From Syntrophales bacterium (GTDB lineage: Bacteria; Desulfobacterota; Syntrophia; Syntrophales; UBA6109), in assembly GCA_035366835.1 (NCBI GenBank), contig DAOSIS010000005.1, positions 52 to 64,051 of the forward strand: a stretch of 64,000 nucleotides of DNA. The letters are read 5' to 3'. Below are positions 44,528 to 60,216 of this stretch, in pieces. The notes beneath the pieces were generated by a model, which saw nothing but the letters and a program-made list of their open reading frames with translations, was not told the origin of the DNA and made no database searches. How positions within the stretch are numbered: position 1 is the stretch's first letter; each line of letters begins with the position of its first letter. The translations under genes were made by a program, and so were the position numbers.

Positions 44528-44546
44528 ACACAAGGGGAGGGTGGGA

Positions 44547-45819: not shown

Positions 45820-46647
45820 ATGAAGGTTCTGGAGGAGCGTCGCGGGCTCAGCGTCGCGCTGCTGCAGGTTCTGGAGAGGTTGCCGGTTCTTTCCTGCTAC
45901 GCGAAGACCCACGGGTGGAACTACGTCGTCAGCTGGTTGCATCGCCTGACGGGGATCGGCCTCGTCGTTTACCTGGGCATTCACCTTTACACCCTTTCGT
46001 CGCTTTCCACGCCGTCCGTCTACGACGCGAAGATGAGGATAATGTATCTGCCGATCGTCGTATTCCTTGCCTGGGCCTCGTCGCTGATGGTCGCGTTTCA
46101 CGCCCTGAACGGAGGCCGGCTGATCCTTTACGAGTCCTTCGGAAACCGGAACGACGAGACGATGATCCGCTGGACCTTCGGCCTGACCGTCTCGTATGCG
46201 CTCCTGCTGGGCATTCTCATGCTGATGAACAATCAGAACGTTTCGGCGGTCTTCTTCTGGCTGCTGACATTTTTCGCCGGCCTGGCCACAGCGTACGCCG
46301 TTGCGTCCCGCATCTGGAACACCAAGCACTCGGCCTGGTGGAAGCTCCAGCGGATCAGCGGCGCCTTCCTGGTCATCGCGATTCCGGCGCATCTGGTCTT
46401 CTCGCACCTCAACCCGGGGATGGCGCAGGAGGCGCAGGCGGTGATCGCCCGCATGCAGAATCTCTTCATCCGCTTCGTCGATCTGGTCCTTGCGGCCGCG
46501 GCGCTGTACCACACCGGCTACGGGCTCTACTCGATCGCTACGGATTACGTCTCCGCCGGTGCGGTCCGGACGGCTCTGGCGGTCCTGATCGCCGTCGTCG
46601 TCGCCGTGTTCGGCTTTCTGGCGCTCAAGTTGACACTGTTCATCTAA
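45820..46647 (+). CDS. fused SdhC-SdhD-like membrane anchor (cytochrome b) of a complex II paralogue
   Basis: 275 aa, about 6 TM helices. The N-half (WLHRLTGIGLVVYLGIHLY...AFHALNGGRLI) parallels the separate SdhC at 58544. The C-half (WWKLQRISGAFLVIAIPAHLVFSHL...LYHTGYGLYSI) parallels SdhD at 58995 (LHMAVVHL...LYHGFYGLRTI). Confidence 0.75.
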   Translation: MKVLEERRGLSVALLQVLERLPVLSCYAKTHGWNYVVSWLHRLTGIGLVVYLGIHLYTLSSLSTPSVYDAKMRIMYLPIVVFLAWASSLMVAFHALNGGRLILYESFGNRNDETMIRWTFGLTVSYALLLGILMLMNNQNVSAVFFWLLTFFAGLATAYAVASRIWNTKHSAWWKLQRISGAFLVIAIPAHLVFSHLNPGMAQEAQAVIARMQNLFIRFVDLVLAAAALYHTGYGLYSIATDYVSAGAVRTALAVLIAVVVAVFGFLALKLTLFI

Positions 46648-46664
46648 GAAAAGGGGGACGCGCG

Positions 46665-48461
46665 ATGGGAAACAAGCTGCAAATCTCTGCAACGCTGAAC
46701 TGTGATGTCCTGATCGTCGGAGCCGGGGGCGCGGGTCTTCGCTGCGCCGCGCACCTTCTCGAACACAAGCCGAACTTGAAGATTTTCGCGGTGACGAAGG
46801 TGTCGCACCCGCAGAAGTCCCACACGAGCACGGCCCAGGGCGGGCTGGCCGCCGTGGATCCGAAGGACAAGACGGACAAGCCGATCTACCACATGTTCGA
46901 TACCTGGAAGGGCGGGGACTGCTCTTCCGACCAGGACGTGGTCAAGAAGATCGTCGAGGGCGGCTGGGACGAGATCCGCTGGCTGGAGGGCCGCGGGATG
47001 CACCTGAGCCGGGACGAGGAGGGAAACATCAGCAAGCGCCAGTTCGGGGGGCACACCAACGAATTCGGCAAGGGAGACGTGTTCCGCGCCGTCTTCGAGG
47101 CCGACCGGACGGGCAAGGGCATGATGGACACGGCCTGGGGCGAGGCGCTCAAGCACGGGTCGGTCTTCATCAATTCCGCGGTCGTCACGGAGCTCCTCTT
47201 CAACGAGGGGTGCTGCGTCGGCGCGGTGCTCTACAAGATCCGGGACGGCGAATTCGTCACGGTGCTGGCGAAGGCGACCGTTCTGGCGACGGGCGGCTCG
47301 GGTCAGGTTTTCCGGATCACGACGAACTGCCGCGGCAACACGGGCGACGGCATCGCCGTGGTTCTCCGTGCCGGACTGCCGGTCATGGACCCCGAGGCCG
47401 TCCAGTTTCACCCGACGGGGATCGTGGGGCCGGGGATCCTGGCCAGCGAGGCCCTGCGGAGCGAAGGCGGGATCCTGCGCAACAAGGACATGGAGCCGTT
47501 CATGGACCGCTACGCCCCGAAGATGAAGAACCTCGCGCCCCGGGACATCGTGGCCCGCTCCATCGAGACGGAGATCCGGGAAGGCCGTGGCATCATGAAC
47601 CCCGACCACCAGATCGAGCACGTCTGGATCGACCTGCGGCATCTGCCGGACTACGTCCACGAAGTGAAGCTCAAGGAAGTGGCGAGCTTCTTCAAGACTT
47701 ACGCCAATCTGGATTCGCGCACGCAACTCTGCCCGGTGCGTCCTTCCAACCACTACCACATGGGAGGCATTCCGACCAACGCCTTCGGGGAGGTCCAGGG
47801 CGACAGCGGCCGGATCGTGCCGGGCCTCTTCGCCGTGGGGGAATGCGCCTGTGCGAGCTTCCACGGATTCAACCGCCTGGGCACCAACTCCCTGCTGGAA
47901 CTCCTGACGATGGGCCGGTACGTGGGAGAGCGCGTCGAGACCTATCTTTCGGAAAAGCCGATTTCCGCCCCCAAGGGCGCGGGCGAGGCGAGCCTGTCCC
48001 TGTTCTCGTCGTATCTGTCGGGAACGGGGAAGGAGAACGTCGGGCGGGTCCGTCTGGAGATGCGCGACATGATGACGCGCAAGGTCGGCGTTTTCCGGCA
48101 CGAAAAGGGCGTCTCCGAAGCGATCCAGGAGTTGATGGCGTTCAAGGAGCGGGCGGGGAAGACGTCGGTATCGGTCCGGGATGCGAGATGGAACCAGGAA
48201 TTGCTCGAGCGGTGGGAACTGGACAACCTGCTGGACAATGCCATGACCATGGCCCAGGGGGCGCTGCTCAGGAAGGAATCGCGCGGCGCGCATTTCCGTG
48301 AGGACTACCCGGTGCGCAGCGACGAGTTCCAGTACCATACCCTCGTGTCCATGACCGAATTCGGCAAGGTGACCTTCGGGAGGCGTGCCATCGACATGAG
48401 CCTCTTCAACGCCAAGGACGAATACTCCGAGCACTTCAAGATCATCCCGAGGAAGTATTGA
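46665..48461 (+). CDS. succinate dehydrogenase/fumarate reductase-type flavoprotein subunit (paralogue 1, Gln-type)
   Basis: 598 aa; DVLIVGAGGAGLR, FAD-linking SHTSTAQGG, FHPTG, LRSEGG, HYHMGG, NRLGTNSL, ESRGAHFREDYP. Internal ATG of ORF 45915..48461 after AAGGGGGA. Confidence 0.9.
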   Translation: MGNKLQISATLNCDVLIVGAGGAGLRCAAHLLEHKPNLKIFAVTKVSHPQKSHTSTAQGGLAAVDPKDKTDKPIYHMFDTWKGGDCSSDQDVVKKIVEGGWDEIRWLEGRGMHLSRDEEGNISKRQFGGHTNEFGKGDVFRAVFEADRTGKGMMDTAWGEALKHGSVFINSAVVTELLFNEGCCVGAVLYKIRDGEFVTVLAKATVLATGGSGQVFRITTNCRGNTGDGIAVVLRAGLPVMDPEAVQFHPTGIVGPGILASEALRSEGGILRNKDMEPFMDRYAPKMKNLAPRDIVARSIETEIREGRGIMNPDHQIEHVWIDLRHLPDYVHEVKLKEVASFFKTYANLDSRTQLCPVRPSNHYHMGGIPTNAFGEVQGDSGRIVPGLFAVGECACASFHGFNRLGTNSLLELLTMGRYVGERVETYLSEKPISAPKGAGEASLSLFSSYLSGTGKENVGRVRLEMRDMMTRKVGVFRHEKGVSEAIQELMAFKERAGKTSVSVRDARWNQELLERWELDNLLDNAMTMAQGALLRKESRGAHFREDYPVRSDEFQYHTLVSMTEFGKVTFGRRAIDMSLFNAKDEYSEHFKIIPRKY

Positions 48462-48497
48462 ATGAAGGCTTCTTCGCCGCAAATACAGGAGGAAGGT

Positions 48498-49208
48498 ATG
48501 TCCAAGATCTTCTCGCTGACCCTGACGATCAAGCGCTACGATCCCGATGCGGAGAAAACCTGGTTCCAAACCTACAAACTGGAGGCGGGGGGCATCCTGC
48601 GCTTCGTCGATCTGTTCCGGAGAATCAACGTGGAGCAGGACGCCACGCTGAGCTGGGCGTCCTCGTGCGAACACGGGCAGTGCGGGAGCTGTTCCGTGAA
48701 GATCAACGGCCGGCCGATGCTGGCCTGCGAGCTTCTGGTGGAAAACGCCGTCGAGCTGTTCGGCACCACGGAATTCAAGATCGAGCCCGTGACGGTCGCT
48801 CCGGTGATCCGGGACCTGGTCGTGGATTGGGAAAAGGCCTACGAACGGGTCCACCGCGCGAAACCCTACGTGATTTCGCCCAAGCAGCTTCCGCCCGGCG
48901 TCACGGAGCACGTCATTTCCCCGCAGGAAATCGCCAGGTACGAAGACGCCACGCGCTGCATCAACTGCTTCTGCTGCGCCACCGCCTGCATCAGCTCCCA
49001 CAGGAGCTTCATCGGCCCCAATGCCGCCATGGCCAGCATCGTGCGCATGATGGATACGAGGGAAACGGCGAAGGAGGAAAGACTGGATCTCCTGTACAGC
49101 GAAGAGGGGGTCTACCGCTGCCACACCTCGAAGGCCTGCACGCACGTCTGCCCCAAGAAGATCGACGTGGCCCACTTCATCGCCCTGGCGAAGGAAGGGG
49201 AGTTTTGA
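48498..49208 (+). CDS. complex II iron-sulfur subunit (paralogue 1)
   Basis: 236 aa; [2Fe-2S] SCEHGQCGSCSVKINGRPMLAC, then CINCFCCATAC and CHTSKACTHVCP clusters. ATG after AGGAGGAAGG. Confidence 0.9.
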   Translation: MSKIFSLTLTIKRYDPDAEKTWFQTYKLEAGGILRFVDLFRRINVEQDATLSWASSCEHGQCGSCSVKINGRPMLACELLVENAVELFGTTEFKIEPVTVAPVIRDLVVDWEKAYERVHRAKPYVISPKQLPPGVTEHVISPQEIARYEDATRCINCFCCATACISSHRSFIGPNAAMASIVRMMDTRETAKEERLDLLYSEEGVYRCHTSKACTHVCPKKIDVAHFIALAKEGEF

Positions 49209-49279
49209 TCGCTCGGGTGACCTGACTGCGGAGAGGCGATCGACGCCGCCCGCCGAACTTCGGAACAGGAGGGAAGACC

Positions 49280-50629
49280 ATGCCGAAGGAAATTCTCGCC
49301 GACCAACTGGCAAAATATTTCTGCGGGCTTCGCTTCGAAGACCTGGGAAAAGAGCATGTCGCCAACATGAAGGGGTACATCCTGGACTGGCTGGGTTCGG
49401 CCTACGCGGGCAGGGATCTGCCGCCGGTCCGGATGATGCGGAGCGTCGCCGGTAGTCTCGGCGGCAAGCCGGAGTCGACCTCCATTCCCGACGGCACCAA
49501 GACCAGCTGCATCCTGGCGGCGCTGGTGAACGGCGCGACATCCCACGTCGTCGAGATGGACGACCTGCACCGGGAGTCGATCCTTCATCCGGCCTGCGCC
49601 ATCCTTCCCGCGGTCCTCGCCCTTGGGGAGCGGCAGCACGCCCCGGGCAGGGATCTGATCCTTGCGGCCTCCGCCGGCTACGAAGTGGGCATCCGCGTGG
49701 CCCTGGCCGTGGGGACGAGCCATTACTACTCCTGGCATACGACGGCGACCTGCGGGACCTACGGCGCGGCGGCGGGTGCGGCCAAGCTGCTGGGCCTCGA
49801 CGAGGATCAATTCGCATGGGCCCTGGGGTCGGCGGGAACGCAGGCGGCCGGACTCTGGGAATTCCTGGTGGAATGCGCCATGAGCAAGCAGCTCCACCCG
49901 GGCAAGGCGGCGATGAACGGTCTCCTGGCGGCCCTGCTGGCGAAGGAGGGGTTCACGGGCGCACGCAGGATCCTGGAAGGCGAGAAGGGGTTCTTCCGCG
50001 CCACGTCGAAGAACTTCGATGAGGGCAAGTGCACGGCGGACCTCGGAAAGGTCTTCCACGGCGACCGCAATTCCATCAAGTACCACGCCTCCTGCGGTCA
50101 CACCCACTCCGCCATCGACGCCGTGCAGCTGGCCACCGGCGGCAGGACCCTGAAAGCGGCGGAGGTCGCGGACGTCCGCATCCAGGTTTATCAGGCGGCG
50201 ATCGACCTCCTGGGGAACGTCGAGGCGAAGTCGCCGTACCTCGCGAAATTCAATCTGCCGTTCTGCATCGCCACGGCGCTGCTCTTCGGGCACGTCCGGC
50301 TGGACGATTTCAGCGAAGCGCGCCTGGCCGACGCCGAGATCCGGAACCTGATGTCCAAGGTTTCTTTCACGGTCGATCCCGAATTGACGAAGGCCTATCC
50401 GCGCAAGTGGCCCGCCCGCGTGACGATCACCCTTGCCGACGGTCGGAAGCTGGAGGCCTGCAACGAATACCCGAAAGGCGATCCGGAAAATCCCCTGACG
50501 GCGTCCGAACTGGTCGCGAAATTCAAGAGCCTTACCGCCGGGATTCTCTCCGGGGCGCAGGCAGACCGGATCGTCGAGAAGGTGATGAATCTGGAAAAGA
50601 TCGCCGATGCAAACGAACTGCTCTCGTGA
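49280..50629 (+). CDS. MmgE/PrpD family protein (2-methylcitrate dehydratase-like)
   Basis: 449 aa; ...LDWLGSAYAG...ALVNGATSHVVEMDDLH...HPACAILPAVLALGE... family pattern. Substrate unknown. Confidence 0.85.
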   Translation: MPKEILADQLAKYFCGLRFEDLGKEHVANMKGYILDWLGSAYAGRDLPPVRMMRSVAGSLGGKPESTSIPDGTKTSCILAALVNGATSHVVEMDDLHRESILHPACAILPAVLALGERQHAPGRDLILAASAGYEVGIRVALAVGTSHYYSWHTTATCGTYGAAAGAAKLLGLDEDQFAWALGSAGTQAAGLWEFLVECAMSKQLHPGKAAMNGLLAALLAKEGFTGARRILEGEKGFFRATSKNFDEGKCTADLGKVFHGDRNSIKYHASCGHTHSAIDAVQLATGGRTLKAAEVADVRIQVYQAAIDLLGNVEAKSPYLAKFNLPFCIATALLFGHVRLDDFSEARLADAEIRNLMSKVSFTVDPELTKAYPRKWPARVTITLADGRKLEACNEYPKGDPENPLTASELVAKFKSLTAGILSGAQADRIVEKVMNLEKIADANELLS

Positions 50630-50693
50630 GCGGCTTTTCCCGTTCCGGATTGCGAGTCCGGCGGATGAAAAATGAAGACTGAGGAGGTATGTC

Positions 50694-51581
50694 ATGGCCG
50701 GGAAAGAATTGCACGGCATCTTCCCCTATCTCGTCACACCCCTGGATGAACAGGGACACCTCAAGGAGCAGGTGCTGGCCGATGTCGTCGATCACCTCAT
50801 CCGTCAGGGCGTCCACGGCGTCACGCCGCTGGGCAGCACCGGCGAGGCCCCCTATCTGGACTGGGCGACGAGAAAGAAAACCGTGGAGGTTGTCGTGAAC
50901 GCCGCGGCCGGGCGCGTCCCGGTCGTCGCGGGGATCTGCAACATGTCGACACCGGGGGCCGTGCGTGAGGCCGTGGAAATCGAGAAACTGGGCGTCGACG
51001 GCATCCTGACCATCATGCCCAGCTACTTCCCCTTGGGAGAGCCGCAGGTCGTCGGCCACTTCCGCGCCATCGCCAAGGCCGTGAACTGCCCCATCACGCT
51101 CTACACCAATCCGAAATTCCAGACCTGGGACTTCACGGTGGATGCGTTGAAGCAGCTCGCCGAGGAACCGAACATCCAGTACCTGAAAGATGCTTCCGGA
51201 AACGTCGGGAAGATCATGTCCATTGTCTCCACGCTCGGCAGCCGGATCAAGATCTTCAGCGATACCTCTTCCGTCCCGCTGTTCATGTTCCTGATCGGGG
51301 GCGCCGGCTGGATGTCGGGGCCCGCCTGCATCATACCGAAGCAGAGCATCGAGCTCTACGAAACGGCGAGGCAGAAGAGATGGGAGGAGGCGGCGCAGCT
51401 GCAGATCAAGCAGTGGCCCATGAACGTCGCCTTCCAGCGGTTCTCCCTGTCGGCCTGCGTGAAGGCGGGTCTGGAAATGCAGGGATTTCCCGTAGGGCCC
51501 CCCATGCCGCCGCAAAAGCGGCTGAACCCCGAGGAGAGAAAGGCCCTGGAAAAGATCCTCCGGGACATCGGCGCGCTGTAA
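50694..51581 (+). CDS. DapA/NAL-family class I (Schiff-base, pyruvate-type) aldolase or dehydratase
   Basis: 295 aa; GIFPYLVTPLDEQG, LGSTGEAPYL, IMPSYFP, candidate Schiff-base Lys in IQYLKDASGN. Not obviously a true dihydrodipicolinate synthase. Confidence 0.8.
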   Translation: MAGKELHGIFPYLVTPLDEQGHLKEQVLADVVDHLIRQGVHGVTPLGSTGEAPYLDWATRKKTVEVVVNAAAGRVPVVAGICNMSTPGAVREAVEIEKLGVDGILTIMPSYFPLGEPQVVGHFRAIAKAVNCPITLYTNPKFQTWDFTVDALKQLAEEPNIQYLKDASGNVGKIMSIVSTLGSRIKIFSDTSSVPLFMFLIGGAGWMSGPACIIPKQSIELYETARQKRWEEAAQLQIKQWPMNVAFQRFSLSACVKAGLEMQGFPVGPPMPPQKRLNPEERKALEKILRDIGAL

Positions 51582-51624
51582 TCTCCACTGTGCGACGCAA
51601 ACCGGACCGTTCTGTCGGACTGAA

Positions 51625-51664
51625 GGAAGAGCCGGGTGGACCGTCTGACCCACCGGGCTCTTCC
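51625..51664. terminator. bidirectional hairpin between convergent genes
   Basis: GGAAGAGCCGGGTGG ... CCACCGGGCTCTTCC (15-bp stem, 1 mismatch) between the + strand aldolase gene and the - strand lipoprotein gene. Confidence 0.55.
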
Positions 51665-51692
51665 TGTCCGCGGTGGATTCTTTCGGTGACGG

Positions 51693-53000
51693 CTACGGAA
51701 GGCCGGCCAGCTTTCTCGCCAGGGACGGCACGCCGTTGAGCAGTTCCTCTTCCTTGCCCATCGAGCTTCTCAGCGATCCGATGCCGAGCGTTCCCAGCGA
51801 CTGGATGTCCGTCCGCTTCGCCTGAAGGACGTACAGGCTGCCGAGCACCGCCAGCTTTCCCGTCACCGTTTCGTTGGCCGCCAGCCACTTTCCCATTTGG
51901 ACGGCCTGGCCTTCGTCGATCATTCCCGATTGCTGAAGTTTCAACTCCTCCATCACCTGGACGATATTCTCCCGGTTCACGAGCAGGAACTTGCCCAGTT
52001 CGTGGAGTTCCTCACGCAACGCCTCGGTCAGAATCATGGCGACGACATTGAGCTGTTCGCCGGCGTCGAAGTCGTACACGACGAGACGGCTTTTTCCCGT
52101 CGTACCGGCCTGGTGCTCTTCGAGCATGGCCTGGAGACCGGGGGGGATTTCATCCTTTGCCGGCTTGTCCGTCCGAAGGTCCGCCCTCCTTTCTGGCGGC
52201 GGTGCCGCAGGGGCAGGGGGCGACGGTGTCTTGGACGGCGCCTTCTCCGGAGCGGGGACGGGCTGCAGCAAATCGCGTTCGGTCGGCTTTGCCTCCTCCA
52301 CGGGCCGGGCGGATGAGGCCGGGGGCGTCCTCTCCACGGCGGGCAGGGGCGGCCGTTCCGGCGCTTTCGGGTCCGTCCCCCCGGGAACCGCTTTTCCCTT
52401 CCGGACCGCTGTCGCGAACATGTCTCCCTTGGCCGCCATGAACAGCTTCCGATAGGCATTCCGCATCATTTCCTGCGAGCGGGCCACGCCCTCCGCAAAG
52501 GATTCGCCTACGGTCGTGGTTGAAGCGATGCTTTCCCGGAAGATCCTGCCGGAAGAGAGGCTGATGATGATCTGCTCGGCGGATAAGACGCTCCTTACGG
52601 GGAACTTGCGTTCGAAGATGTTGATGTAGTCCGCATGCAGGGCGCGGCCGACGTCCTTGGCCAGCTTCCAGTTGCCAGCGGACCATCGCCACCCCTCGAT
52701 GTCCTGATTCCCCAACACGGCGGCGACCTCGTCCCGGGGGATGACCTGGTAGAATCCTTTCATCTGCAGCGTTCTGGAAACGTGCCGATATTGGTTATCG
52801 GAGAAGTCCTTGTCCGACACGGGCCATGCGCCGGCCGGATGAGGCGTGGAGGTGACCGGAAGCACGAAGACGCGGAGCTTCGCCGTCGGCGGCGGTGCCG
52901 GAAGCGTATTCAACCGGATTTCCGAGCATCCCGCGAGGATGGCGGTAAGGCACATCGTCAAAAGGGAGGCAACCGCCAGGCGCGGAAACGGCTCCTTCAT
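51693..53000 (-). CDS. two-domain lipoprotein with Pro-rich linker; the C-terminal domain is, by sequence impression only, LpoB/CsgG/FlgO-like
   Basis: Lipobox LTAILAGC|SE after MKEPFPRLAVASLLTM. About 90-aa Pro/Ala/Glu linker (PERPPLPAVERTPPASSARP...PSPPAPAAPPPERR). C-terminal SRLVVYDFDAG...NVVAMILTEALREEL...LVNRENI...ELKLQQSG. Start is the internal ATG of ORF 51693..53081. Confidence 0.7.
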   Translation of the reverse strand: MKEPFPRLAVASLLTMCLTAILAGCSEIRLNTLPAPPPTAKLRVFVLPVTSTPHPAGAWPVSDKDFSDNQYRHVSRTLQMKGFYQVIPRDEVAAVLGNQDIEGWRWSAGNWKLAKDVGRALHADYINIFERKFPVRSVLSAEQIIISLSSGRIFRESIASTTTVGESFAEGVARSQEMMRNAYRKLFMAAKGDMFATAVRKGKAVPGGTDPKAPERPPLPAVERTPPASSARPVEEAKPTERDLLQPVPAPEKAPSKTPSPPAPAAPPPERRADLRTDKPAKDEIPPGLQAMLEEHQAGTTGKSRLVVYDFDAGEQLNVVAMILTEALREELHELGKFLLVNRENIVQVMEELKLQQSGMIDEGQAVQMGKWLAANETVTGKLAVLGSLYVLQAKRTDIQSLGTLGIGSLRSSMGKEEELLNGVPSLARKLAGLP

Positions 53001-53017
53001 GGAACGCTCCTTGGACG

Positions 53018-53437: not shown

Positions 53438-53493
53438 GGCCGTCTGAACCTCCTCTTCAATCCACCGAACGTTTTGGGTGCGCGGTGATCGTC

Positions 53494-53522
53494 ATTATAA
53501 GAGCAAGAGCGATCCGATGCAA
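53494..53522 (-). promoter_or_regulatory. sigma-70 promoter of the usp gene
   Basis: On the minus strand: TTGCAT, 17 nt, then TATAAT, about 57 nt upstream of the usp ATG. Confidence 0.65.
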
Positions 53523-53581
53523 TAACGACTATCGGCCTGCGAACCAAACCGAAATTCCGGATCGGGCGCCGCGAAATATGA

Positions 53582-53623
53582 TGGTAAAAAAGATTTACCA
53601 CACCTGGTAAAAGATCATTACCA
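53582..53623. promoter_or_regulatory. two tandem 19-bp palindromic operator-like sites
   Basis: TGGTAAAAAAGATTTACCA (53582-53600) and TGGTAAAAGATCATTACCA (53605-53623). Both fit TGGTAA-N7-TTACCA; centres are 23 bp apart. They lie in the divergent usp / malic-enzyme control region. Confidence 0.55.
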
Positions 53624-53718
53624 TCAGATGGACACCCACAGGCCATGTTCATAAAAAAATAAATATAATTAAATATTTAAAAGTATTTTGTGGCCGGAGA
53701 CGAACGCCCCTTTTTTTC

Positions 53719-53745
53719 TTGACTATTGCATTTCATTATTATAAA
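53719..53745 (+). promoter_or_regulatory. candidate sigma-70 promoter for the malic enzyme operon
   Basis: TTGACT, 15 nt, then TATAAA. The spacing is sub-optimal, so this is tentative. Confidence 0.3.
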
Positions 53746-53879
53746 AGGTCAATGCTTTTATACAATGCGTATATGTTCATGACGACAGAATTCGCAAAAA
53801 CAATTCACCCAGCCCATTTCCCAACGTTCAGCACGAGTCTTTGAATCCTAATTCTTCTGAGAGAAAGGAGCACCCCAGC

Positions 53880-55334
53880 ATGGCCAAGATTGATCTCAAG
53901 ATGACGGACCTGAAGAAGGCCTTCCCGAAGAACTTTACGCCTGCGCAGATTGCAAAGGGGCAGACGATTTTTCTGAAGGAACTGGCCTATGAAGCGCACA
54001 AGTACTACGGCGGCAAGATGATGACGGTTCCGAAGGCCGGTCTGTACAGCTTCAATTGGTTCAACGTTTACTACAGCCCCGGCGTTTCGAAGATCTCGAC
54101 CTCGATCCGCGACGACAACAACCTCTCTTTCGAACTCTCCAACCGCGCGAACCTCGTCGCGGTGGTCAGCGATTCCACGCGCGTCCTGGGCGACGGCGAC
54201 TGCACGCCCCCCGGCGGCCTGGGAGTCATGGAAGGCAAGGCCTTCCTGATCAAGTATCTCGGCGGTCTCGATGCGATCGCACTTTGCGTGAACAGCTACA
54301 ACGCAAAAGGCGAGCATGACGCCGACAAAATCATTGAGTTCGTGAAGATGCTGCAGCCGAGCGTCGGCGCGGTCAACCTCGAAGACATCTCGCAGCCGAA
54401 CTGCTTCAAGGTCCTGGACACCCTGCGGGAAGAGTGCGAAATTCCCGTCTGGCATGACGACGCGCAGGGCACCGCCTGCGTGACCCTCGGCGGTTTGATC
54501 AATGCCCTGAAGGTCGCCGGCAAGCAGATGGGCAAGGTGAAGATGGCCTTCTTCGGTGCCGGGGCCTCCAACACGACGATCGTCCGTCTGATCCTCGCGG
54601 CAGGTGCCGATCCGGACAATATCGTGATGTGCGACTCCAAGGGAGGACTGCACAAGGGCCGCAAGGACATCGAGGCCGACAAGCGCTACTACCGCAAATG
54701 GGAAATCTGCGAGGCAACGAATCCCAACAGGATCAACAACATTCAGGATGCCATGAAGGGTGCCGACGTGCTGATTTCGCTTTCCACGCCGGGACCGGGC
54801 GTCATCAAGGCTGAGTGGGTGAAGACCATGGCGAAGAAGTCGATCGTCTTTGCCTGCGCCAACCCCGTTCCCGAAATCTATCCCTACGAGGCGAAGGAAG
54901 CGGGCGCCTACGTCGTGGCCACCGGCCGCGGCGACTTCCCCAACCAGGTGAACAACTCCATCGGCTTCCCCGGCATCCTCAAGGGCGCCTCCCTGGTGAA
55001 GGCGTCGAAGATCACGGATGGGATGGCGATCGCGGCCGCCAAGTGTCTGGCCAAGACGGCCGAGAAGCGCGGTATCAATCCCGACGACATCGTCCCGAAG
55101 ATGACGGAATGGGAAGTCTTCCCCTCCGAAGCCAGGGACGTGGCCATGCAGGCCATCAAGGACGGCGTCGCCAGGGTGAAGATGTCCGCCAAGGAAGTCT
55201 ACAAGAAAGCCTATGATGACATCGCCGAGTCGCGAAAACTGACGGAGACCCTGATGGCGAAGGGTTTCATCAGGAAACCGCCCGTCAGCATGCTGGAAAA
55301 GGCGCTCAAGAAGGCGATTGCTCAGGCCAAATAG
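53880..55334 (+). CDS. maeA: NAD(P)-dependent malic enzyme (short, non-PTA-fused form)
   Basis: 484 aa; ...VVSDSTRVLGDGDCTPPGGLGVMEGKAFLIKYLGG..., dinucleotide fold FFGAGASNTT, ...NNSIGFPGILKGA. ATG after GAAAGGAG. The gene symbol is generic. Confidence 0.88.
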   Translation: MAKIDLKMTDLKKAFPKNFTPAQIAKGQTIFLKELAYEAHKYYGGKMMTVPKAGLYSFNWFNVYYSPGVSKISTSIRDDNNLSFELSNRANLVAVVSDSTRVLGDGDCTPPGGLGVMEGKAFLIKYLGGLDAIALCVNSYNAKGEHDADKIIEFVKMLQPSVGAVNLEDISQPNCFKVLDTLREECEIPVWHDDAQGTACVTLGGLINALKVAGKQMGKVKMAFFGAGASNTTIVRLILAAGADPDNIVMCDSKGGLHKGRKDIEADKRYYRKWEICEATNPNRINNIQDAMKGADVLISLSTPGPGVIKAEWVKTMAKKSIVFACANPVPEIYPYEAKEAGAYVVATGRGDFPNQVNNSIGFPGILKGASLVKASKITDGMAIAAAKCLAKTAEKRGINPDDIVPKMTEWEVFPSEARDVAMQAIKDGVARVKMSAKEVYKKAYDDIAESRKLTETLMAKGFIRKPPVSMLEKALKKAIAQAK

Positions 55335-55347
55335 ATAGGGGGTTACC

Positions 55348-56187
55348 ATGAGAGAGGTCCACGTCAGTGAAATCGTTCCAATTGTAAAAAAACTGCTGAT
55401 CGATGCAAATTACAAGATTGGTCAAGACATCGTGGACGCCTTCGACAAGGGGATTCAGAAGGACGAATCGCCCGTCGCAAGGGAAGTTCTGAAGGAGCTC
55501 AAGCAGAACGTCGGAATTTCCGCGGAAGGCGAATATCCGATCTGTCAGGACACGGGATTGGCCGTCCTGTTCGTCGATATCGGTCAGGATGTCCACATCG
55601 TGGGCGGAAACATCAGGGAAGCGCTCAACGAGGGCGTCCGCCAGGCCTACAAGGACGGCTACCTGAGGAAATCGTCCTGTGATCCGTTTACCAGGAAGAA
55701 CACGGGGGACAATACCCCGGCGATCGTCCACTATGACATCGTTCCCGGCGACAAGATCAGAATCATGGCCGTTCCCAAGGGCGGCGGCGCGGAGAATATG
55801 AGCCGCGTGCACATGCTGGCACCCTCGGCGGGCGTTGAAGGCATCAAGGATTTCATCGTCAACCGGATGAAGGAAGCAGGCTCCAATCCCTGTCCTCCCA
55901 CGGTTGTCGGCGTCGGGATCGGCGGAACCTTCGAGAGAACGGCTATCCTGGCGAAAAAGGCACTGTTGAGAAAGGTGGGGGAGCGCCATCCCGATCCGGT
56001 CATTGCGAAACTCGAGCAGGAGGTCCTGGAGCGGATCAACAAACTCGGGATCGGGCCTATGGGGTATGGCGGCACGACCACGGCGCTCGATGTCTTCTTC
56101 GAGGTGGAGCCCTGCCACATCGCCAGCCTTCCGCTGGCGGTGAATGTACAGTGTCATGCAAACAGGCACAAAGAAGCGACGATCTGA
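55348..56187 (+). CDS. class I (Fe-S) fumarate/tartrate/mesaconate hydro-lyase, alpha subunit
   Basis: 279 aa; ...YPICQDTGLAVLFVDIG...PKGGGAENMS...NPCPPTVVGVGIGGT... Confidence 0.88.
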   Translation: MREVHVSEIVPIVKKLLIDANYKIGQDIVDAFDKGIQKDESPVAREVLKELKQNVGISAEGEYPICQDTGLAVLFVDIGQDVHIVGGNIREALNEGVRQAYKDGYLRKSSCDPFTRKNTGDNTPAIVHYDIVPGDKIRIMAVPKGGGAENMSRVHMLAPSAGVEGIKDFIVNRMKEAGSNPCPPTVVGVGIGGTFERTAILAKKALLRKVGERHPDPVIAKLEQEVLERINKLGIGPMGYGGTTTALDVFFEVEPCHIASLPLAVNVQCHANRHKEATI

Positions 56188-56200
56188 ATGGAGGATTAGC

Positions 56201-56758
56201 ATGGCAAACGAGATTCGATTGAAGACCCCCTTGACCGATGCAGACGTCGACAAATTGAAGATCGGCGACAAGGTCCTGATTACGGGCGTCATTTATACGG
56301 GAAGGGATGCGGCTCACAAACGGATGATCGACCTCATCAATCAGGGCAAGGAATTGCCCATCGATGTCAAGGGGCAGATCATCTACTACGTCGGCCCGAC
56401 CCCGGCCAGGCCGGGCAAGCCGATCGGCTCCGCGGGACCGACGACGAGCTACCGAATGGACGCCTACGCCCCGAAGATGATGGAACTGGGGATGAAGGGC
56501 ATGATCGGTAAGGGAAACCGCGCTCCCGAAGTCATCGCGGCGATGAAAAAATACAAGGCCATCTACTTCGGCGCCACGGGCGGCGCCGGCGCCGTCCTCG
56601 CCAGGAGCATCAAGAAGGCGAAGGTCGTCGCTTACGAGGACCTGGGACCCGAGGCCATCCATCGGTTGGAGGTCGAAGATTTTCCGGCGGTCGTCATCAA
56701 CGACACCAAGGGAAACGACCTCTACGTGGAGGGCGCAAAGAAATACCGGAAAGACTGA
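56201..56758 (+). CDS. class I (Fe-S) fumarate/tartrate/mesaconate hydro-lyase, beta subunit
   Basis: 185 aa; ...GDKVLITGVIYTGRDAAHKRM...YYVGPTPARPGKPIGSAGPTTSYRMD...IGKGNR... Internal ATG of ORF 56144..56758. Confidence 0.88.
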   Translation: MANEIRLKTPLTDADVDKLKIGDKVLITGVIYTGRDAAHKRMIDLINQGKELPIDVKGQIIYYVGPTPARPGKPIGSAGPTTSYRMDAYAPKMMELGMKGMIGKGNRAPEVIAAMKKYKAIYFGATGGAGAVLARSIKKAKVVAYEDLGPEAIHRLEVEDFPAVVINDTKGNDLYVEGAKKYRKD

Positions 56759-56787
56759 AGACAAATACTCGATAAAGGTGGGTGGAT

Positions 56788-58533
56788 ATGAAAACTGCCG
56801 GATACGGTGGAAGAGAAACGGAAATTGTCACTCACGACGTATTGATATTCGGGACGGGACTGGCGGGTCTGCGGGCCGCCGTTGAAATCGCCCGCAAGTC
56901 CGACGATGCCATCAACATCGGTCTCGTCTCCAAAGTCCAGATTCAGCGCCCGCACTCGGTATGCGCCGAGGGCGGCACCGCGGCCGTTCTCCGGGAGGAG
57001 GAGGGAGACAATCTCGAACTCCACGCCTGGGATACGGTGAAAGGCGCCGACTTTCTCGCCGATCAGGATGTCGTCGACCGGTTTGTGGAAACCAGCCCCA
57101 AGGAAATCCTGCTCATGGATCACTGGGGAATGCCCTGGTCGCGGCGCCCGAACGGCAGCATCCAGCAGCGTCCCTTCGGAGGGCACAGTTTTCCGCGGGC
57201 GACGATGGCGGCGGACAAGACCGGTTTCTTCGAGGTGCAGACGCTCTACGACACCTTCATGCAGTACAAGAATTTCTCGCGGTACGACGAGTTCTTCGCG
57301 ACGTCGATTCTCGTGGAGAACGGAGAATTCTGCGGCCTCGCGGGCATCTTCATGCCCACGGGGAAATTCATGGTGCTGCGGGCGAAGGCGCTGCTGATCG
57401 CGACCGGCGGCCTGGGAACGCTGTACGGGTTCACCACCTATTCCCAGACCGTCAGCGGCGACGGCCAGGCGCTGGCGTACAAGGCCGGATTTGCCATCGA
57501 GGATCCCGAGTTCCTGCAGTTCCATCCCACGGGGCTTGTCCCCTCGGGAATTCTCATGACGGAGGCGTGCCGCGGCGAAGGCGGTTACCTGAAGAACACC
57601 GAAGGCAAGCGCCTCATGGAAAAGTATGCCTCGAAATTCATGGAGCTGGCGCCGCGTGACATCGTTTCCCGGTCGGAAATGACCGAGATTCTGGAGGGCC
57701 GCGGTTTCAAAGGCCCGGACGGCCTCGACTACGTCCACCTCGACCTCACGCACCTGGGAGCCGAAAAAATCAATCACTGCCTTCCCCTGATCCGGGAAGT
57801 CTGCATGAAGTTCCTCGGCCTCGATCCGATCCTGAAGCCGATTCCGGTCCGGCCGGTTGCGCACTACAGCATGGGCGGAATCGAGGCGGACATCAACGGC
57901 GCGACGAAGATCAAGGGAGTATGGGCGGCCGGCGAGGTTGCCTGCCACTCCATGCACGGTGCCAACCGTCTCGGCTGCAATTCCACGGCGGAATGCCTCG
58001 TCTGGGGCGGGATCACGGGGGCGGAGATCGTCAAGTATCTCAACGCCGACCCGCCGATGCCGAAACTTCGCGGGGATGCCATTGATGCGGAATTCGCCCG
58101 CATCTTTGTCGAACTTCTGAACCGCAAGGGCACGGAGAACCAGTACGACATCAAGAAGGAACTCCGCATCGCCATGGACCAGCACGCCGGCGTCTACCGC
58201 ACGGCCAAGAGCATGAGCGAAGGGCTGGCCACGGTGCAGAACCTCAAGCAGCGATACCAGCGCATCTCGATCCAGGACAAGGGCCAGGTCTACAACACCA
58301 ACCTGATCAATGCCCTGGAAGTGGACAATCTCCTGAATCTGGCCGAAGCGCTCCTGACGGCCGCCCTGGCGCGCGAGGAATCCCGCGGGGCGCATGCCCG
58401 CACGGATTTCCCCACGCGGGATGACGAGAAGTGGCTGAAGCACACGCTTGTCACCTACAGTCAGGACGGGCCGAAACTCTCTTACAAGCCGGTAGCCATC
58501 ACCAAGTGGAAGCCGGTTGAGCGGAAATACTAA
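56788..58533 (+). CDS. fumarate reductase/succinate dehydrogenase flavoprotein subunit (paralogue 2, Glu-type)
   Basis: 581 aa; DVLIFGTGLAGLRAA, FAD-linking PHSVCAEGG, FHPTG, CRGEGG, HYSMGG, NRLGCNS, ESRGAHARTDFP. GTG 56782 is an alternative start. Confidence 0.92.
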   Translation: MKTAGYGGRETEIVTHDVLIFGTGLAGLRAAVEIARKSDDAINIGLVSKVQIQRPHSVCAEGGTAAVLREEEGDNLELHAWDTVKGADFLADQDVVDRFVETSPKEILLMDHWGMPWSRRPNGSIQQRPFGGHSFPRATMAADKTGFFEVQTLYDTFMQYKNFSRYDEFFATSILVENGEFCGLAGIFMPTGKFMVLRAKALLIATGGLGTLYGFTTYSQTVSGDGQALAYKAGFAIEDPEFLQFHPTGLVPSGILMTEACRGEGGYLKNTEGKRLMEKYASKFMELAPRDIVSRSEMTEILEGRGFKGPDGLDYVHLDLTHLGAEKINHCLPLIREVCMKFLGLDPILKPIPVRPVAHYSMGGIEADINGATKIKGVWAAGEVACHSMHGANRLGCNSTAECLVWGGITGAEIVKYLNADPPMPKLRGDAIDAEFARIFVELLNRKGTENQYDIKKELRIAMDQHAGVYRTAKSMSEGLATVQNLKQRYQRISIQDKGQVYNTNLINALEVDNLLNLAEALLTAALAREESRGAHARTDFPTRDDEKWLKHTLVTYSQDGPKLSYKPVAITKWKPVERKY

Positions 58534-58543
58534 GGGGGACACG

Positions 58544-58981
58544 ATGGCAGACTTCAAGAAATTCGACAACCATTTTGGGATTCTGGGCTGGCTCGGTGGA
58601 GGCCGATGGGGTGTGGAGCGTTATCTGTACATCATCCATCGCGTGGCCGGGTTGGGATTGCTGCTGTTCTTCCTGCTGCATATTTTTGAGAGTTCGTTGA
58701 GGATCTTCGGGCCGGAGACGTGGAACGGGGCGATGGAAACCCTCAAGCATCCCTTCTTCAAGGTCGGTGAGTTTTTCATTGTCATCGGCTTCGCCTTCCA
58801 CGCCCTCAACGGCATCCGTCTGATCCTCATCGAATGGGGACTTGCGGTGGGCAAGGCCGAAGAGCCGGTCTATCCTTACAGATCGTCCTTGAATACCCAG
58901 CGTCCGCTGATGGTGATCGCGATGATCCTTTCCGCGGTCTTCATCATCGCCGGGGGATTCAATATCTTTTTCGTGGGATGA
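58544..58981 (+). CDS. complex II membrane anchor subunit C (cytochrome b)
   Basis: 145 aa, 3 TM; YIIHRVAGLGLLLFFLLHIF...FAFHALNGIRLIL. Internal ATG of ORF 58517..58981. Confidence 0.8.
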   Translation: MADFKKFDNHFGILGWLGGGRWGVERYLYIIHRVAGLGLLLFFLLHIFESSLRIFGPETWNGAMETLKHPFFKVGEFFIVIGFAFHALNGIRLILIEWGLAVGKAEEPVYPYRSSLNTQRPLMVIAMILSAVFIIAGGFNIFFVG

Positions 58982-58994
58982 AGGGAGCTTCGCG

Positions 58995-59369
58995 ATGAGA
59001 GAGACAGCATACTGGATCTGGTTTGTTATTGCCGGGCTCGTCATCTTCGTTCTGGGCGGGCTCCACATGGCGGTAGTCCATCTGAGCGGGATTGTCGGGA
59101 TCTTCAACCCGGCCGGCGCGGAAGCCGTGGCGTGGGAAAATGTGGCCTTCCGGAGTCATTCGACGTTCTTCATGATTGCGTACATCCTGCTGTTGGCGGC
59201 AGTGCTCTATCACGGTTTCTACGGCCTGCGAACGATCGTCTTCGAGCTGGGGATCGGCAAGGCCTGCCAGCGGTCGCTGACGGTGGCGCTGTGGATCGTC
59301 GGGGTGGTCCTTTTCATTGTCGGTGCCTATGCCGCGATTGCGGCCAAGACGCTGGGCGCAGCCCTATAG
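58995..59369 (+). CDS. complex II membrane anchor subunit D
   Basis: 124 aa, 3 TM; ...GGLHMAVVHL...LYHGFYGLRTIVFELG... Confidence 0.75.
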   Translation: MRETAYWIWFVIAGLVIFVLGGLHMAVVHLSGIVGIFNPAGAEAVAWENVAFRSHSTFFMIAYILLLAAVLYHGFYGLRTIVFELGIGKACQRSLTVALWIVGVVLFIVGAYAAIAAKTLGAAL

Positions 59370-59382
59370 GAAGGATGAAACC

Positions 59383-60216
59383 ATGGAAAAAGAAGAAAAG
59401 AAGACCAACATCACTTTTTATATCCGTCGCTTCGATCCGGCAAAGGATGAGGAGCCCAGGGAACAGCAGTACAACCTCCAGGTGGAGAAGGGAATGACGG
59501 TGCTGGACGGCCTGCACCGGATCAAGGAGACCCAGGACCCGACCCTGGCATTCCGTTTTTCCTGCCGGATGGGCGTCTGCGGTTCCTGCGGCATGCTGAT
59601 CAACGGCCGGCCGACGCTCGCCTGCAACACGCAGATTCTCGACGTGACGCAGAACGTTCTTACGGTCGCGCCCCTTCCGAATTTTTCGATCATCAGGGAC
59701 CTGGTGCCGGATCTCGTGCCGATGTTCGAAGTCCATCAGCGCATCCAGCCCTACATCAAGCGCAGCGACAGGAAGGAGATGGAGGATCCGTCGGGGGAAT
59801 TCTTCCAGAGCCAGCATCAGCTGGAAAAGTTTCTCCAGTTCACCTACTGCATCAAGTGCGGCGCCTGCATGGCCGCCTGCCCCACGATGGCGACGGACAG
59901 GCAGTACCTGGGACCCATGCCGATCACCCAGATCTACCGGTACTGCGTCGATTCCCGGGACGATGGCCGGAAAGAAAGAATGGACATCGTCGCGGCGTCT
60001 CACGGGGCGTACAACTGTCACTACGCCGGAGAATGCTCCAATGTCTGTCCCAAGGGCGTCGATCCTGCACGCGCCATCCAGTTGATGAAGAAGGAACTCG
60101 TCCGCGAGTATTTCAACTTGGTCGGAAAGGAGCCCTGCGCAAAGGTATGGCACCTTCCTGAAAACGCGGAACGAAAACCGAAGATCCAGGCCCCTGCGCG
60201 CACTGTCGGCAAATAG
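59383..60216 (+). CDS. complex II iron-sulfur subunit (paralogue 2)
   Basis: 277 aa; SCRMGVCGSCGMLINGRPTLAC, CIKCGACMAACP, CHYAGECSNVCP. Internal ATG of ORF 59317..60216. Confidence 0.9.
   Translation: MEKEEKKTNITFYIRRFDPAKDEEPREQQYNLQVEKGMTVLDGLHRIKETQDPTLAFRFSCRMGVCGSCGMLINGRPTLACNTQILDVTQNVLTVAPLPNFSIIRDLVPDLVPMFEVHQRIQPYIKRSDRKEMEDPSGEFFQSQHQLEKFLQFTYCIKCGACMAACPTMATDRQYLGPMPITQIYRYCVDSRDDGRKERMDIVAASHGAYNCHYAGECSNVCPKGVDPARAIQLMKKELVREYFNLVGKEPCAKVWHLPENAERKPKIQAPARTVGK

Follow-up and report, generated by a model that had tools for sequence, protein, structure and literature searches.

Why does a single genome carry two complete sets of complex II genes in one short region, and do the two enzymes act on the same substrate? 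The question is raised by a 64,000-nucleotide stretch of a Syntrophales bacterium genome (contig DAOSIS010000005.1; hereafter the window), whose first half is occupied by housekeeping genes (rpoBC, tuf, secY, rpoA, lptD, asd, cysS) and whose proteins are found unchanged in the metagenome-assembled genomes (MAGs) Syntrophaceae bacterium PtaU1.Bin231 and Syntrophales bacterium, both from methanogenic reactors. We propose that the window encodes two specialised complex II enzymes, and that the first of these, paralogue 1, would carry out the menaquinone-linked oxidation of (S)-methylsuccinate or of a near 2-substituted succinate, a reading to which we give about an even chance. What the sequences themselves show is which genes are present, which residues are conserved, how far synteny reaches and that one neighbour is homologous to a known isomerase; substrate, catalytic direction, haem content and membrane-potential coupling are predicted.

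Two diverged complex II enzymes with opposite flavin-site residues

Both gene sets are complete and lie on the + strand. Paralogue 1 (45820-49208) has the order [fused CD]-A-B. It comprises a 275-amino acid (aa) anchor with two Sdh_cyt stretches, hereafter CD1 (45820..46647), a 598-aa flavoprotein, A1 (46665..48461; Pfam FAD_binding_2 and Succ_DH_flav_C), and an iron-sulfur subunit, B1 (48498..49208, in an open reading frame (ORF) that opens at 48462; Pfam Fer2_3 and Fer4_8). Paralogue 2 (56788-60216) has the order A-C-D-B and starts 7.6 kb further on (49208 to 56788). A first-pass annotation of this DNA had described two complex II sets of differing architecture at this spacing, and ORFs, coordinates and domains all proved to be as claimed, every subunit assignment being confirmed with Pfam and NCBIfam models. 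Both flavoproteins carry the FAD_binding_2 and Succ_DH_flav_C domains together with H45, H242, R286, H354 and R399 (E. coli SdhA numbering, also used for the clade-specific positions below), and B1 and B2 both contain the three Cys motifs of the 2Fe-2S, 4Fe-4S and 3Fe-4S clusters.

Pairwise alignment of the A, B and anchor subunits identified them as diverged paralogues. A1 and A2 share 38% identity, a spread similar to that between E. coli SdhA and FrdA (42%), and B1 and B2 share 32%. At such distances the paralogues are ancient and do not stem from a recent duplication.

The two enzymes differ next to the FAD-linking His. Codon CAG at 46836-46838 is in frame and encodes Gln58 of A1, within SHTSTAQGG, while GAG at 56968-56970 encodes Glu61 of A2, within PHSVCAEGG; codons and motifs are those that the first-pass annotation had read. 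The position is correctly assigned in both proteins: HMMER aligned the A2 segment 'rphsvcaegg' with 'rshtvaaegg' of E. coli FrdA, matching His44 and Glu49, and a MAFFT alignment including the verified E. coli SdhA placed the A1 Gln at SdhA Q50. The annotation had stated, correctly, that swapping SdhA Q50 and FrdA E49 shifts catalytic bias in E. coli (PMC4145680), and had predicted an oxidative paralogue 1 and a reductive paralogue 2. That prediction gained support: among relatives of A1, 115/115 have Gln, among those of A2, 116/117 have Glu, and A1 is nearest to succinate dehydrogenases (SDHs) and A2 to FrdA. All computational checks able to refute it went in its favour. Sdh1 of Mycobacterium smegmatis carries Glu at this position, yet is a succinate dehydrogenase without detectable fumarate reductase activity (PMC4145680). 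The Gln/Glu pair is therefore an indicator of bias which supports a direction, but no proof of it.

Paralogue 1 has a fused, seven-helix membrane anchor

The presence in one genome of two complex II enzymes with Gln and Glu signatures is already familiar from E. coli and mycobacteria. What paralogue 1 adds is the fusion of SdhC to SdhD through a seventh helix, which would place it between type A and type B of the usual classification of complex II. The N-terminal half of CD1 matched the SdhC model TIGR02970 and the C-terminal half the SdhD model TIGR02968, and no type B model matched either. The suggestion that the two halves mirror C and D, which in paralogue 2 are separate subunits, was borne out: the N-terminal half shares 33% identity with C2 (E 9e-10) and the C-terminal half 27% with D2 (E 1e-8), and the crossed pairs were not significant. 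A hydropathy scan and an AlphaFold model (mean predicted confidence, pLDDT, of 62, which is low, and used for the helix count only) both gave seven long helices, three on either side of a linker helix at residues ~143-165. Since type B anchors are single five-helix polypeptides of their own sequence families, and CD1 has seven helices and matches SdhC and SdhD models, the fusion appears to have arisen independently. The end of SdhC and the start of SdhD face different sides of the membrane, and a fusion of the two would for this reason need a linker helix. We found no description of a fused SdhCD anchor in literature searches.

His94 and His231 were invariant in an alignment of 66 anchor sequences, in which His55 was conserved in 95%, His191/His196 in 83-88% and Tyr243 in at least 95%; Asp242 and Tyr243 were both invariant in a 32-sequence alignment. 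His94 aligns with the haem ligand of E. coli SdhC, whose complex with SdhD contains one haem only, and His55 aligns with a His of SdhC from the dihaem Sdh2, where E. coli SdhC has Leu. In pig SdhD, the counterparts of His231 and the Asp-Tyr pair are a conserved His and the T-D-Y motif, which we take to be a haem ligand and the proximal quinone site, respectively. In CD1, His residues lie where the four ligands of a dihaem type A anchor pair would be expected (H55, H94, H191/H196 and H231, 83-100% conserved). These residues suggest that the fused anchor is probably dihaem, with a proximal quinone site. The D subunit of paralogue 2 (58995-59369) is without the Asp-Tyr motif after its haem His, whereas the fused anchor retains TDY, presumably the proximal quinone site in E. 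coli as in pig SdhD; the two enzymes may therefore differ in their quinone sites.

The anchor family is small, with 44 clusters at 50% identity among 1.84 billion representatives, and ~720 at 90% identity, all of them from uncultured Thermodesulfobacteriota. The clade of paralogue 1 is nonetheless widespread.

A1 carries clade-specific changes in the substrate loop

A1 narrowly passed the generic SdhA/FrdA model TIGR01812 and fell below the cut-off of every SdhA/FrdA equivalog model. Its best match in the PDB was the flavoprotein of M. smegmatis Sdh2 (6LUM), and its best scores were against succinate dehydrogenases. A1 belongs to a separate clade which is confined to uncultured Thermodesulfobacteriota. 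We aligned 115 homologues sharing 62-94% identity with A1. His45 (the FAD-linking residue), Gln50, His242, Glu255, Arg286, His354 and Arg399 were invariant throughout the clade, and A1 retains the hydride/proton machinery. Four other positions also set the clade apart, T254S, V/M253A, C257L and A397F being found in 115/115 sequences.

The first of these changes affects the canonical Thr of the substrate loop (FrdA T244 / SdhA T254), a capping-domain residue that hydrogen-bonds and twists the dicarboxylate substrate (PMC5773532). This normally conserved Thr was always Ser in the A1 clade, whereas A2 and 115/117 of its relatives have Thr. A1 also shows several changes in the second shell. The substrate-pocket residues of the two paralogues are consequently not identical, A1 having Ser for Thr254 and A2 being canonical. 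The smaller residues at 254 and 253 would be compatible with space for a methyl group, as far as can be judged by inference from residue size.

The A1 clade divides into two sub-types at SdhA positions 256, 260 and 356. The window protein and those of Syntrophaceae have Ala/Glu/His, and the other sub-type, with Thr256/Val260/Gln356, accounts for 73/115 sequences and is without the Glu of the otherwise conserved R-G-E-G-G motif.

The neighbouring PrpD-like protein is a close homologue of methylsuccinate isomerase

The first-pass annotation had noted that paralogue 1 is embedded with PrpD- and DapA-family genes rather than tricarboxylic acid (TCA) cycle genes, and had suggested that its substrate may not be succinate. 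The gene directly following B1 supplies a specific clue to that substrate. It encodes an MmgE/PrpD-family protein (49280..50629, +) which shares 43% identity over 436 aa with PA0881 of Pseudomonas aeruginosa (330 bits; best PDB match, 139 bits). A 2025 study established by experiment that PA0881, from the itaconate cluster of Pseudomonas and Cupriavidus, acts as an (S)-(R)-methylsuccinate isomerase (PMC12290011). Each MmgE/PrpD enzyme characterised so far has a C2/C3-substituted succinate as its substrate, and those of epimerase type have an extra catalytic Tyr (PMC12290011). The window protein has this Tyr: its H89, E92, H103, Y149, H153, K203 and K267 correspond, with identical spacing, to H88, E91, H102, Y148, H152, K202 and K266 of PA0881, and Y149 aligns with the catalytic Tyr145 of iminodisuccinate (IDS) epimerase. 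All seven residues, including the isomerase-type Tyr, were present in 54/54 cluster-linked homologues. The surroundings of three (H1, H5 and H10) of the 25 top matches listed from a search of 72,556 plasmid records were examined, and all three lie inside itaconate/methylsuccinate clusters of the arrangement MaoC-acyl-CoA dehydrogenase-PrpD-CoA transferase-CoA ester lyase. The window cluster departs from that arrangement, and the co-location with methylsuccinyl-CoA dehydrogenase and the itaconate genes that marks this isomerase subgroup is lacking: besides its CoA-ester lyase and family III CoA-transferase, the cluster contains neither acyl-CoA dehydrogenase nor MaoC. From these homologies we regard the 49280-50629 protein as a probable isomerase of methylsuccinate, or of another 2-substituted succinate, and the suggestion of a non-succinate substrate is correspondingly strengthened. 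Methylsuccinate is among the substrates listed in the first-pass annotation.

Other functions for this protein fitted less well. True 2-methylcitrate dehydratase (PrpD) models gave 35-52 bits, against cut-offs of 458-950, and E. coli PrpD (1szq) gave 34 bits. An ATP-conserving methylcitrate cycle is unlikely, the protein being so far from true PrpD and the PrpB and PrpC families not being among the most frequent in the 20 related neighbourhoods scanned. Cis-aconitate decarboxylase (CAD) was rejected because the protein has the second catalytic Tyr of epimerases and is much nearer to the isomerase than to CAD.

The link between complex II, isomerase homologue and CoA-ester cleavage is conserved

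To place these genes in context, species-representative genomes were scanned for A1 orthologues, which yielded 80 loci (designated by L numbers where single loci are discussed), all from MAGs and many on short contigs. Hosts were Syntrophaceae/Syntrophus, with A1 identities of 75-95%, and Desulfobacteraceae, Desulfatiglandales, Desulfarculaceae, Desulfofustis and Desulfohalobiaceae, at 61-68%. Proteins of the window and of one related locus were then searched onto the 80 loci. Along with A1, the fused anchor was found in 69, the B subunit in 73, the PrpD-like protein in 55, the CoA-ester lyase in 37, a GntR regulator in 36, a small ferredoxin in 34, the thiokinase in 26, a dihydrodipicolinate synthase (DHDPS)-like protein in 22 and class I fumarase in 9. 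The recurrent order is PrpD-like, SucC-/SucD-like thiokinase, an optional HD-domain protein, CitE-like lyase, small ferredoxin, GntR and CD-A-B; on the 3′ side, a DHDPS-like protein, an additional PrpD-like protein or a class I fumarase may follow. Dozens of genomes keep the non-TCA context of paralogue 1. One caveat concerns the DapA-family gene, which occurs in only about a quarter of the related loci (22/80, ~65% identity, after SdhB).

A census of the neighbourhoods of 20 related loci (L013-L081), covering the 25 most frequent families, found TAXI/TRAP (tripartite ATP-independent periplasmic) and major facilitator superfamily transporters enriched. Aconitase, PrpB and PrpC were not among the most frequent families in these 20 neighbourhoods.

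The accessory genes vary more than the core. In L012, whose A1 is 95% identical to that of the window, CoA-transferase, lyase and class I hydro-lyase lie directly upstream of CD-A-B-PrpD-like-DHDPS. Compared with window positions 38153-45819, the corresponding stretch of this locus (L012:4909-9982) lacks the sigma-54 activator, the two subunits of the thiokinase and also the 113-aa ORF described below, and has a divergent FumA/FumB-type pair, 36% and 30% identical to the window fumarase, between lyase and fused anchor. Given this difference between window and L012, a single near-species lineage has recently exchanged accessory genes. In L012 and nine other loci the cluster includes a gene of class I fumarase type, and L012 and L019 retain the adjacency of paralogues 1 and 2. 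Read from gene content, every variant of the cluster follows one scheme, which is to dehydrogenate a succinate-type acid, hydrate the product, activate it with CoA and cleave it. On these grounds, paralogue 1 can be described from its sequences as a complex II variant whose anchor is a seven-helix fusion, whose substrate loop is altered and which is linked to an isomerase homologue and CoA-ester cleavage. Literature searches for this gene module returned no description of it.

A proposed free-acid route that would turn methylsuccinate into acetyl-CoA and pyruvate

Could such a gene set degrade methylsuccinate? E. coli Sdh oxidises (S)-methylsuccinate to mesaconate (bioRxiv 10.1101/2025.11.12.688011, 10.64898/2026.01.16.699985), class I fumarases hydrate mesaconate to (S)-citramalate, and growth of E. 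coli on methylsuccinate via Sdh(F119L), FumA and citramalate lyase has been reported (bioRxiv 10.64898/2026.01.16.699985). In the route that we propose, the PrpD-like isomerase would interconvert (R)- and (S)-methylsuccinate and so provide a stereospecific complex II with the enantiomer that it accepts. Paralogue 1 would then oxidise methylsuccinate to mesaconate, and a class I fumarase/mesaconase, which in the window could be that at 55348-56758, would hydrate mesaconate to (S)-citramalate. A SucCD-like thiokinase or a family III CoA-transferase would make citramalyl-CoA, which a CitE-like lyase would cleave to acetyl-CoA and pyruvate. A free-acid route is the most economical reading because these Desulfobacterota clusters hold complex II in place of acyl-CoA dehydrogenase and MaoC hydratase.

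Candidates for the last two steps lie upstream of CD1, all on the + strand. The thiokinase is encoded by a SucC-like, ADP-forming beta subunit gene (42012..43277; Pfam ATP-grasp_2 and Citrate_bind) and a SucD-like alpha subunit gene (43625..44527; Pfam CoA_binding and Ligase_CoA). The beta subunit had as its best PDB matches Thermus succinyl-CoA synthetase (SCS) beta and the large subunit of citryl-CoA synthetase, and its C-terminal domain resembles the citrate-binding domain of ATP-citrate lyase; the alpha subunit scored 265 bits against the NCBIfam succinate-CoA ligase alpha model, below the cut-off of 336. The lyase, of CitE/malyl-CoA-lyase type and a candidate citramalyl-CoA lyase (44547..45479; Pfam HpcH_HpaI and C-C_Bond_Lyase), scored 203 bits against NCBIfam citE and 168 bits against RipC_Ccl, both below cut-off, and matched malyl-CoA/beta-methylmalyl-CoA lyase and CitE in the PDB. 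The family III (CaiB/BaiF) CoA-transferase (38219..39436; Pfam CoA_transf_3, 6e-107) offers a possible alternative for the activation step. A glyoxylate/malyl-CoA pathway was also considered for thiokinase and lyase; it leaves the isomerase homologue and complex II unexplained.

Several observations weigh against the methylsuccinate proposal. The first-shell substrate residues of A1 are canonical save Thr254, and Phe119, the shortening of which improved methylsuccinate use in E. coli, is kept in 113/115 relatives. At 43% identity the substrate of the isomerase homologue is not fixed, and sequence relationships for the last steps are more distant still, lyase and CoA-transferase being 30% and 27% identical to P. 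aeruginosa Ccl and itaconate CoA-transferase (Ict), respectively. The citrate-binding-like domain of the thiokinase beta subunit would suit a tricarboxylate substrate too. Most clusters are without a hydratase gene, so that a class I fumarase of housekeeping function has to be postulated. The scheme gives no role to the DHDPS-like, HD-domain, small ferredoxin and 113-aa Cys-rich proteins, and the Gln/Glu pair, as M. smegmatis Sdh1 illustrates, does not strictly predict direction.

Some of these points would be expected if paralogue 1 were an ordinary succinate:menaquinone oxidoreductase, serving the oxidative TCA cycle or the regeneration of fumarate and oxaloacetate, with neighbours that feed or drain succinate. 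Examples would be a succinate-releasing CoA-transferase coupled to SucCD-like recycling of succinyl-CoA, or an ATP-conserving (methyl)citrate route. Besides the active site, canonical but for T254S, and the retained Phe119, the pass of A1 against TIGR01812, the invariant SDH-type Gln, the class I fumarase adjoining in 9 loci and the best scores of both thiokinase subunits, against succinate-CoA ligase models and Thermus SCS, are all in line with such an enzyme. It would, however, leave without explanation the replacement of the substrate-twisting Thr by Ser and the further clade-specific changes in 115/115 sequences, as well as the scores of A1 below every equivalog cut-off. Nor does it account for conserved linkage to an isomerase homologue, CoA-ester lyase, GntR and carboxylate transporters instead of TCA genes, aconitase, PrpB and PrpC being outside the most frequent neighbourhood families and the PrpD-like protein being remote from true PrpD (34 bits against 1szq). 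We consider an ordinary SDH less likely than a methylsuccinate-oxidising enzyme, though the most serious of the alternatives.

The citrate-like features of the cleavage genes raise another possibility, that the substrate is a different substituted succinate. This could be tricarballylate, processed via cis-aconitate, citrate and citryl-CoA to acetyl-CoA and oxaloacetate, or a longer 2-alkylsuccinate derived from hydrocarbon activation by fumarate addition. The Citrate_bind domain and citryl-CoA synthetase match of the thiokinase beta subunit and the best score of the lyase against citE would agree with the former. The characterised MmgE/PrpD enzymes all take C2/C3-substituted succinates, and the isomerase pocket may admit larger substituents (PMC12290011). 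Syntrophaceae, Desulfobacteraceae and Desulfatiglandales are typical anaerobic hydrocarbon degraders, and low-molecular-weight alkylsuccinates occur in oil reservoirs (PMC3653055). Against this, the PrpD-like protein has as its nearest characterised relative an enzyme that is methylsuccinate-specific and inactive on aconitates (PMC12290011), and the catalytic Tyr speaks for an epimerase, not a dehydratase or decarboxylase. The window showed neither alkylsuccinate synthase nor tricarballylate genes, and the families of both ranked outside the 25 most frequent in the 20 neighbourhoods scanned; literature searches found no description of a tricarballylate link to anaerobes. On balance such substrates appear improbable.

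A last alternative concerns direction. In vivo, paralogue 1 might operate in the reductive sense, reducing mesaconate or fumarate and so acting as an electron sink, with its neighbours running in the synthetic direction from acetyl-CoA and pyruvate through citramalyl-CoA, citramalate (with ATP formation) and mesaconate to methylsuccinate. Complex II enzymes are reversible, low-potential menaquinone makes the reductive direction exergonic, and ATP would be conserved by a thiokinase running backwards; Mfr of Campylobacter, which is related, reportedly reduces mesaconate. The invariant SDH-type Gln, which favours oxidation in E. coli, argues against this, as do the linked uptake transporters and GntR regulators, which look catabolic, and the FrdA-like enzyme that the same genome already has next door. 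We judge a reductive paralogue 1 to be the least probable of the readings considered, and very improbable.

If the methylsuccinate proposal is extended to the whole clade, the fused-anchor enzymes would be dedicated natural methylsuccinate (2-alkylsuccinate):menaquinone oxidoreductases, and the first respiratory complex II with a physiological substrate beyond succinate and fumarate. We advance this tentatively, with odds somewhat below even. At the least, its link to a protein homologous to the methylsuccinate isomerase, itself a recent discovery, provides a concrete substrate hypothesis for a non-succinate complex II. Should it be true, the substrate range of respiratory complex II would be widened, and sulfate reducers and syntrophs would possess a free-acid C5-dicarboxylate route that evolved independently of the CoA-ester route of aerobes. 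It would show how anaerobes use branched C5-dicarboxylates, among them methylsuccinate, products of itaconate reduction and small alkylsuccinates. It would also mean that nature has a counterpart to a synthetic module which was constructed in E. coli only recently, and would offer natural parts for synthetic methylsuccinate/CO2-fixation modules, which now rely on a promiscuous E. coli Sdh mutant.

Comparison of paralogue 1 with known systems

Paralogue 1 shares features with several characterised systems. Its nearest structural counterpart is the type A dihaem Sdh2 of M. smegmatis (6LUM), the best match of A1, which has Gln at the Q50 position and whose SdhC aligns with the N-terminal half of the fused anchor, including both His of the first transmembrane helix and the FHALNG haem motif. 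Unlike Sdh2, paralogue 1 has C and D fused via an extra helix into 275 aa, Ser for Thr in the substrate loop, and a catabolic context of C5-dicarboxylate type in place of central metabolism. With the type B enzymes (Wolinella FrdCAB, Bacillus SdhCAB) it shares a single anchor polypeptide, the order anchor-A-B and, probably, two haems and menaquinone; type B anchors, however, have five helices and belong to their own sequence families, whereas that of paralogue 1 has seven and matches SdhC and SdhD models.

The PA0878-PA0883 cluster of Pseudomonas and Cupriavidus (PMC12290011) resembles the paralogue 1 cluster in its isomerase homologue, family III CoA-transferase, CoA-ester lyase and TRAP transporter, and the route predicted here would have the same end products, acetyl-CoA and pyruvate. 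There, acyl-CoA dehydrogenase and MaoC act on CoA esters; here, complex II and class I fumarase would act on free acids, with CoA activation following, and the hosts are strict anaerobes. The synthetic E. coli module (Sdh F119L, FumA and citramalate lyase) likewise leads from methylsuccinate through mesaconate and citramalate to cleavage on free acids. It uses an engineered, promiscuous housekeeping Sdh, in contrast to the dedicated natural paralogue proposed here, which keeps Phe119, alters Thr254 and its neighbours, and would cleave via a CoA ester.

Paralogue 2 is most likely a fumarate reductase

What, then, is the role of the second enzyme? A2 (56788..58533, +), which has Glu61 at the FrdA E49 position and a canonical active-site loop, passed the curated SdhA/FrdA subfamily model NF004724 (866 bits; cut-off, 826). 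Its best PDB match was E. coli FrdA, at 480 bits and 43% identity, ahead of SdhA at 407 bits. Glu was found in 116/117 homologues (72-97% identity), in which the active-site loop is likewise canonical. The anchor genes C (58544-58981) and D (58995-59369), both + and Pfam Sdh_cyt, encode three hydrophobic helices each by hydropathy scan, with His residues, equivalent to those of the fused anchor, that would suffice for two haems. B2 (59383..60216, +) scored 286 bits against NF004616 (cut-off, 228).

Paralogue 2 is preceded by a malic enzyme gene (53880..55334; Pfam malic and Malic_M), the first of its operon, and by genes for class I fumarase alpha (55348-56187; Pfam Fumerase, 2e-114) and beta (56201-56758; Fumerase_C, 1e-63). 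It is followed by a TRAP transporter with DctP (60373-61383), DctQ (61462-61986) and DctM (61950-63266; Pfam DctP/DctQ/DctM, with NCBIfam dctP above cut-off), all of these genes being on the + strand. The paralogue 2 genes are probably co-transcribed with those for malic enzyme, class I fumarase and this C4-dicarboxylate transporter. The malic enzyme-fumarase alpha/beta-A-C-D-B block is kept in a 78%-identical genome (L092), with a dicarboxylate transporter 5′ of the block, and the operon order is also kept in L019; the A-C-D-B order recurs in distant lineages, for instance in a BRC1 MAG.

Given its nearness to FrdA, Glu in 116/117 homologues and the conserved operon, paralogue 2 is most likely, on its sequence, an enzyme of quinol:fumarate reductase (QFR) type. 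C4-dicarboxylate uptake, malic enzyme, fumarase and an FrdA-like enzyme are the classical components of malate/fumarate dismutation or of respiration with fumarate. Paralogue 2 might accordingly serve in malate/fumarate dismutation, in fumarate respiration or in a reductive branch to succinate; fumarate reduction agrees with an operon that also has malic enzyme, class I fumarase and TRAP DctPQM, and a reductive paralogue 2 is what the first-pass annotation had predicted from the Glu signature. It is in this respect an ordinary representative of a known type of enzyme.

The resemblance to E. coli FrdABCD (type D QFR) covers FrdA as nearest relative, Glu at E49, canonical H232, T244, R287, H355 and R390, and a canonical Fe-S subunit. 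It does not extend to the anchors, which belong to Sdh_cyt (PF01127) and have conserved haem His, whereas FrdC and FrdD are haem-less, nor to the order A-C-D-B or the presence of malic enzyme and fumarase in the operon. Only the flavoprotein can be called E. coli FrdA-like, since the anchors are of cytochrome b type.

A soluble 540-aa FAD_binding_2/Succ_DH_flav_C protein, of L-aspartate oxidase or soluble fumarate reductase type, is encoded at L092:11600-13222, ~1 kb 3′ of the paralogue 2-type operon.

Regulatory signals and accessory genes

Promoter and terminator scans of 41700-61500 gave no signal exceeding shuffled expectation, and hints of operon boundaries were limited to a hairpin 3′ of dctP and one weak sigma-54-like site. 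The hairpin (61393-61420) is GC-rich, has 12 pairs followed by a T-run, and lies directly between dctP and dctQ, where it may attenuate transcription inside the TRAP operon. The second signal is a candidate sigma-54 (-24/-12) promoter, TGGCAT-N5-CTGCA (41931..41946, +), found by pattern search. It lies 66 nt upstream of the thiokinase gene, between this gene and that of a sigma-54-dependent activator with PAS and MimR_N domains (39689..41782, +; Pfam Sigma54_activat, PAS and HTH_8), which is also called as a gene in L001. The argument for this site is positional only, because the pattern occurred 23 times across the window against 20.8 expected, which is not beyond chance. No comparable site was present upstream of the fused anchor, where a sigma-70-like TTGACA-N17-TATAAG is found at ~45666-45700.

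The 113-aa Cys-rich ORF between the thiokinase beta and alpha genes (43279..43620, +) had no Pfam or NCBIfam match and is not homologous to the small ferredoxin of other clusters. It is called as a gene in L001-L004, and its counterpart in L010/L030, 66% identical, forms the 3′ end of a stretch which is called there as a single 534-aa beta-subunit gene. The DHDPS/DapA-family protein (50694..51581, +; Pfam DHDPS) scored 167.7 bits against the dapA equivalog TIGR00674, below the cut-off of 206, and matched best the uncharacterised putative dihydrodipicolinate synthetase 3eb2 of the PDB (343 bits). In five loci a 49% identical DHDPS-like homologue is paired with an extra FAD_binding_2 flavoprotein.

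Two further observations were made in related loci. Amidohydrolase-family genes, outside the proposed pathway, were found in 6/20 neighbourhoods, two of which have adenine-deaminase C-terminal domains. In L008, from a Desulfobacterota relative, the cluster is followed on the 3′ side by electron transfer flavoprotein (ETF) beta/alpha and a CCG-domain Fe-S oxidoreductase (L008:12584-16369) and preceded on the 5′ side by a GlcD/GlcF-like pair (L008:42-2744), flanks which hint at an extra electron route or at a link to glycolate or D-lactate.

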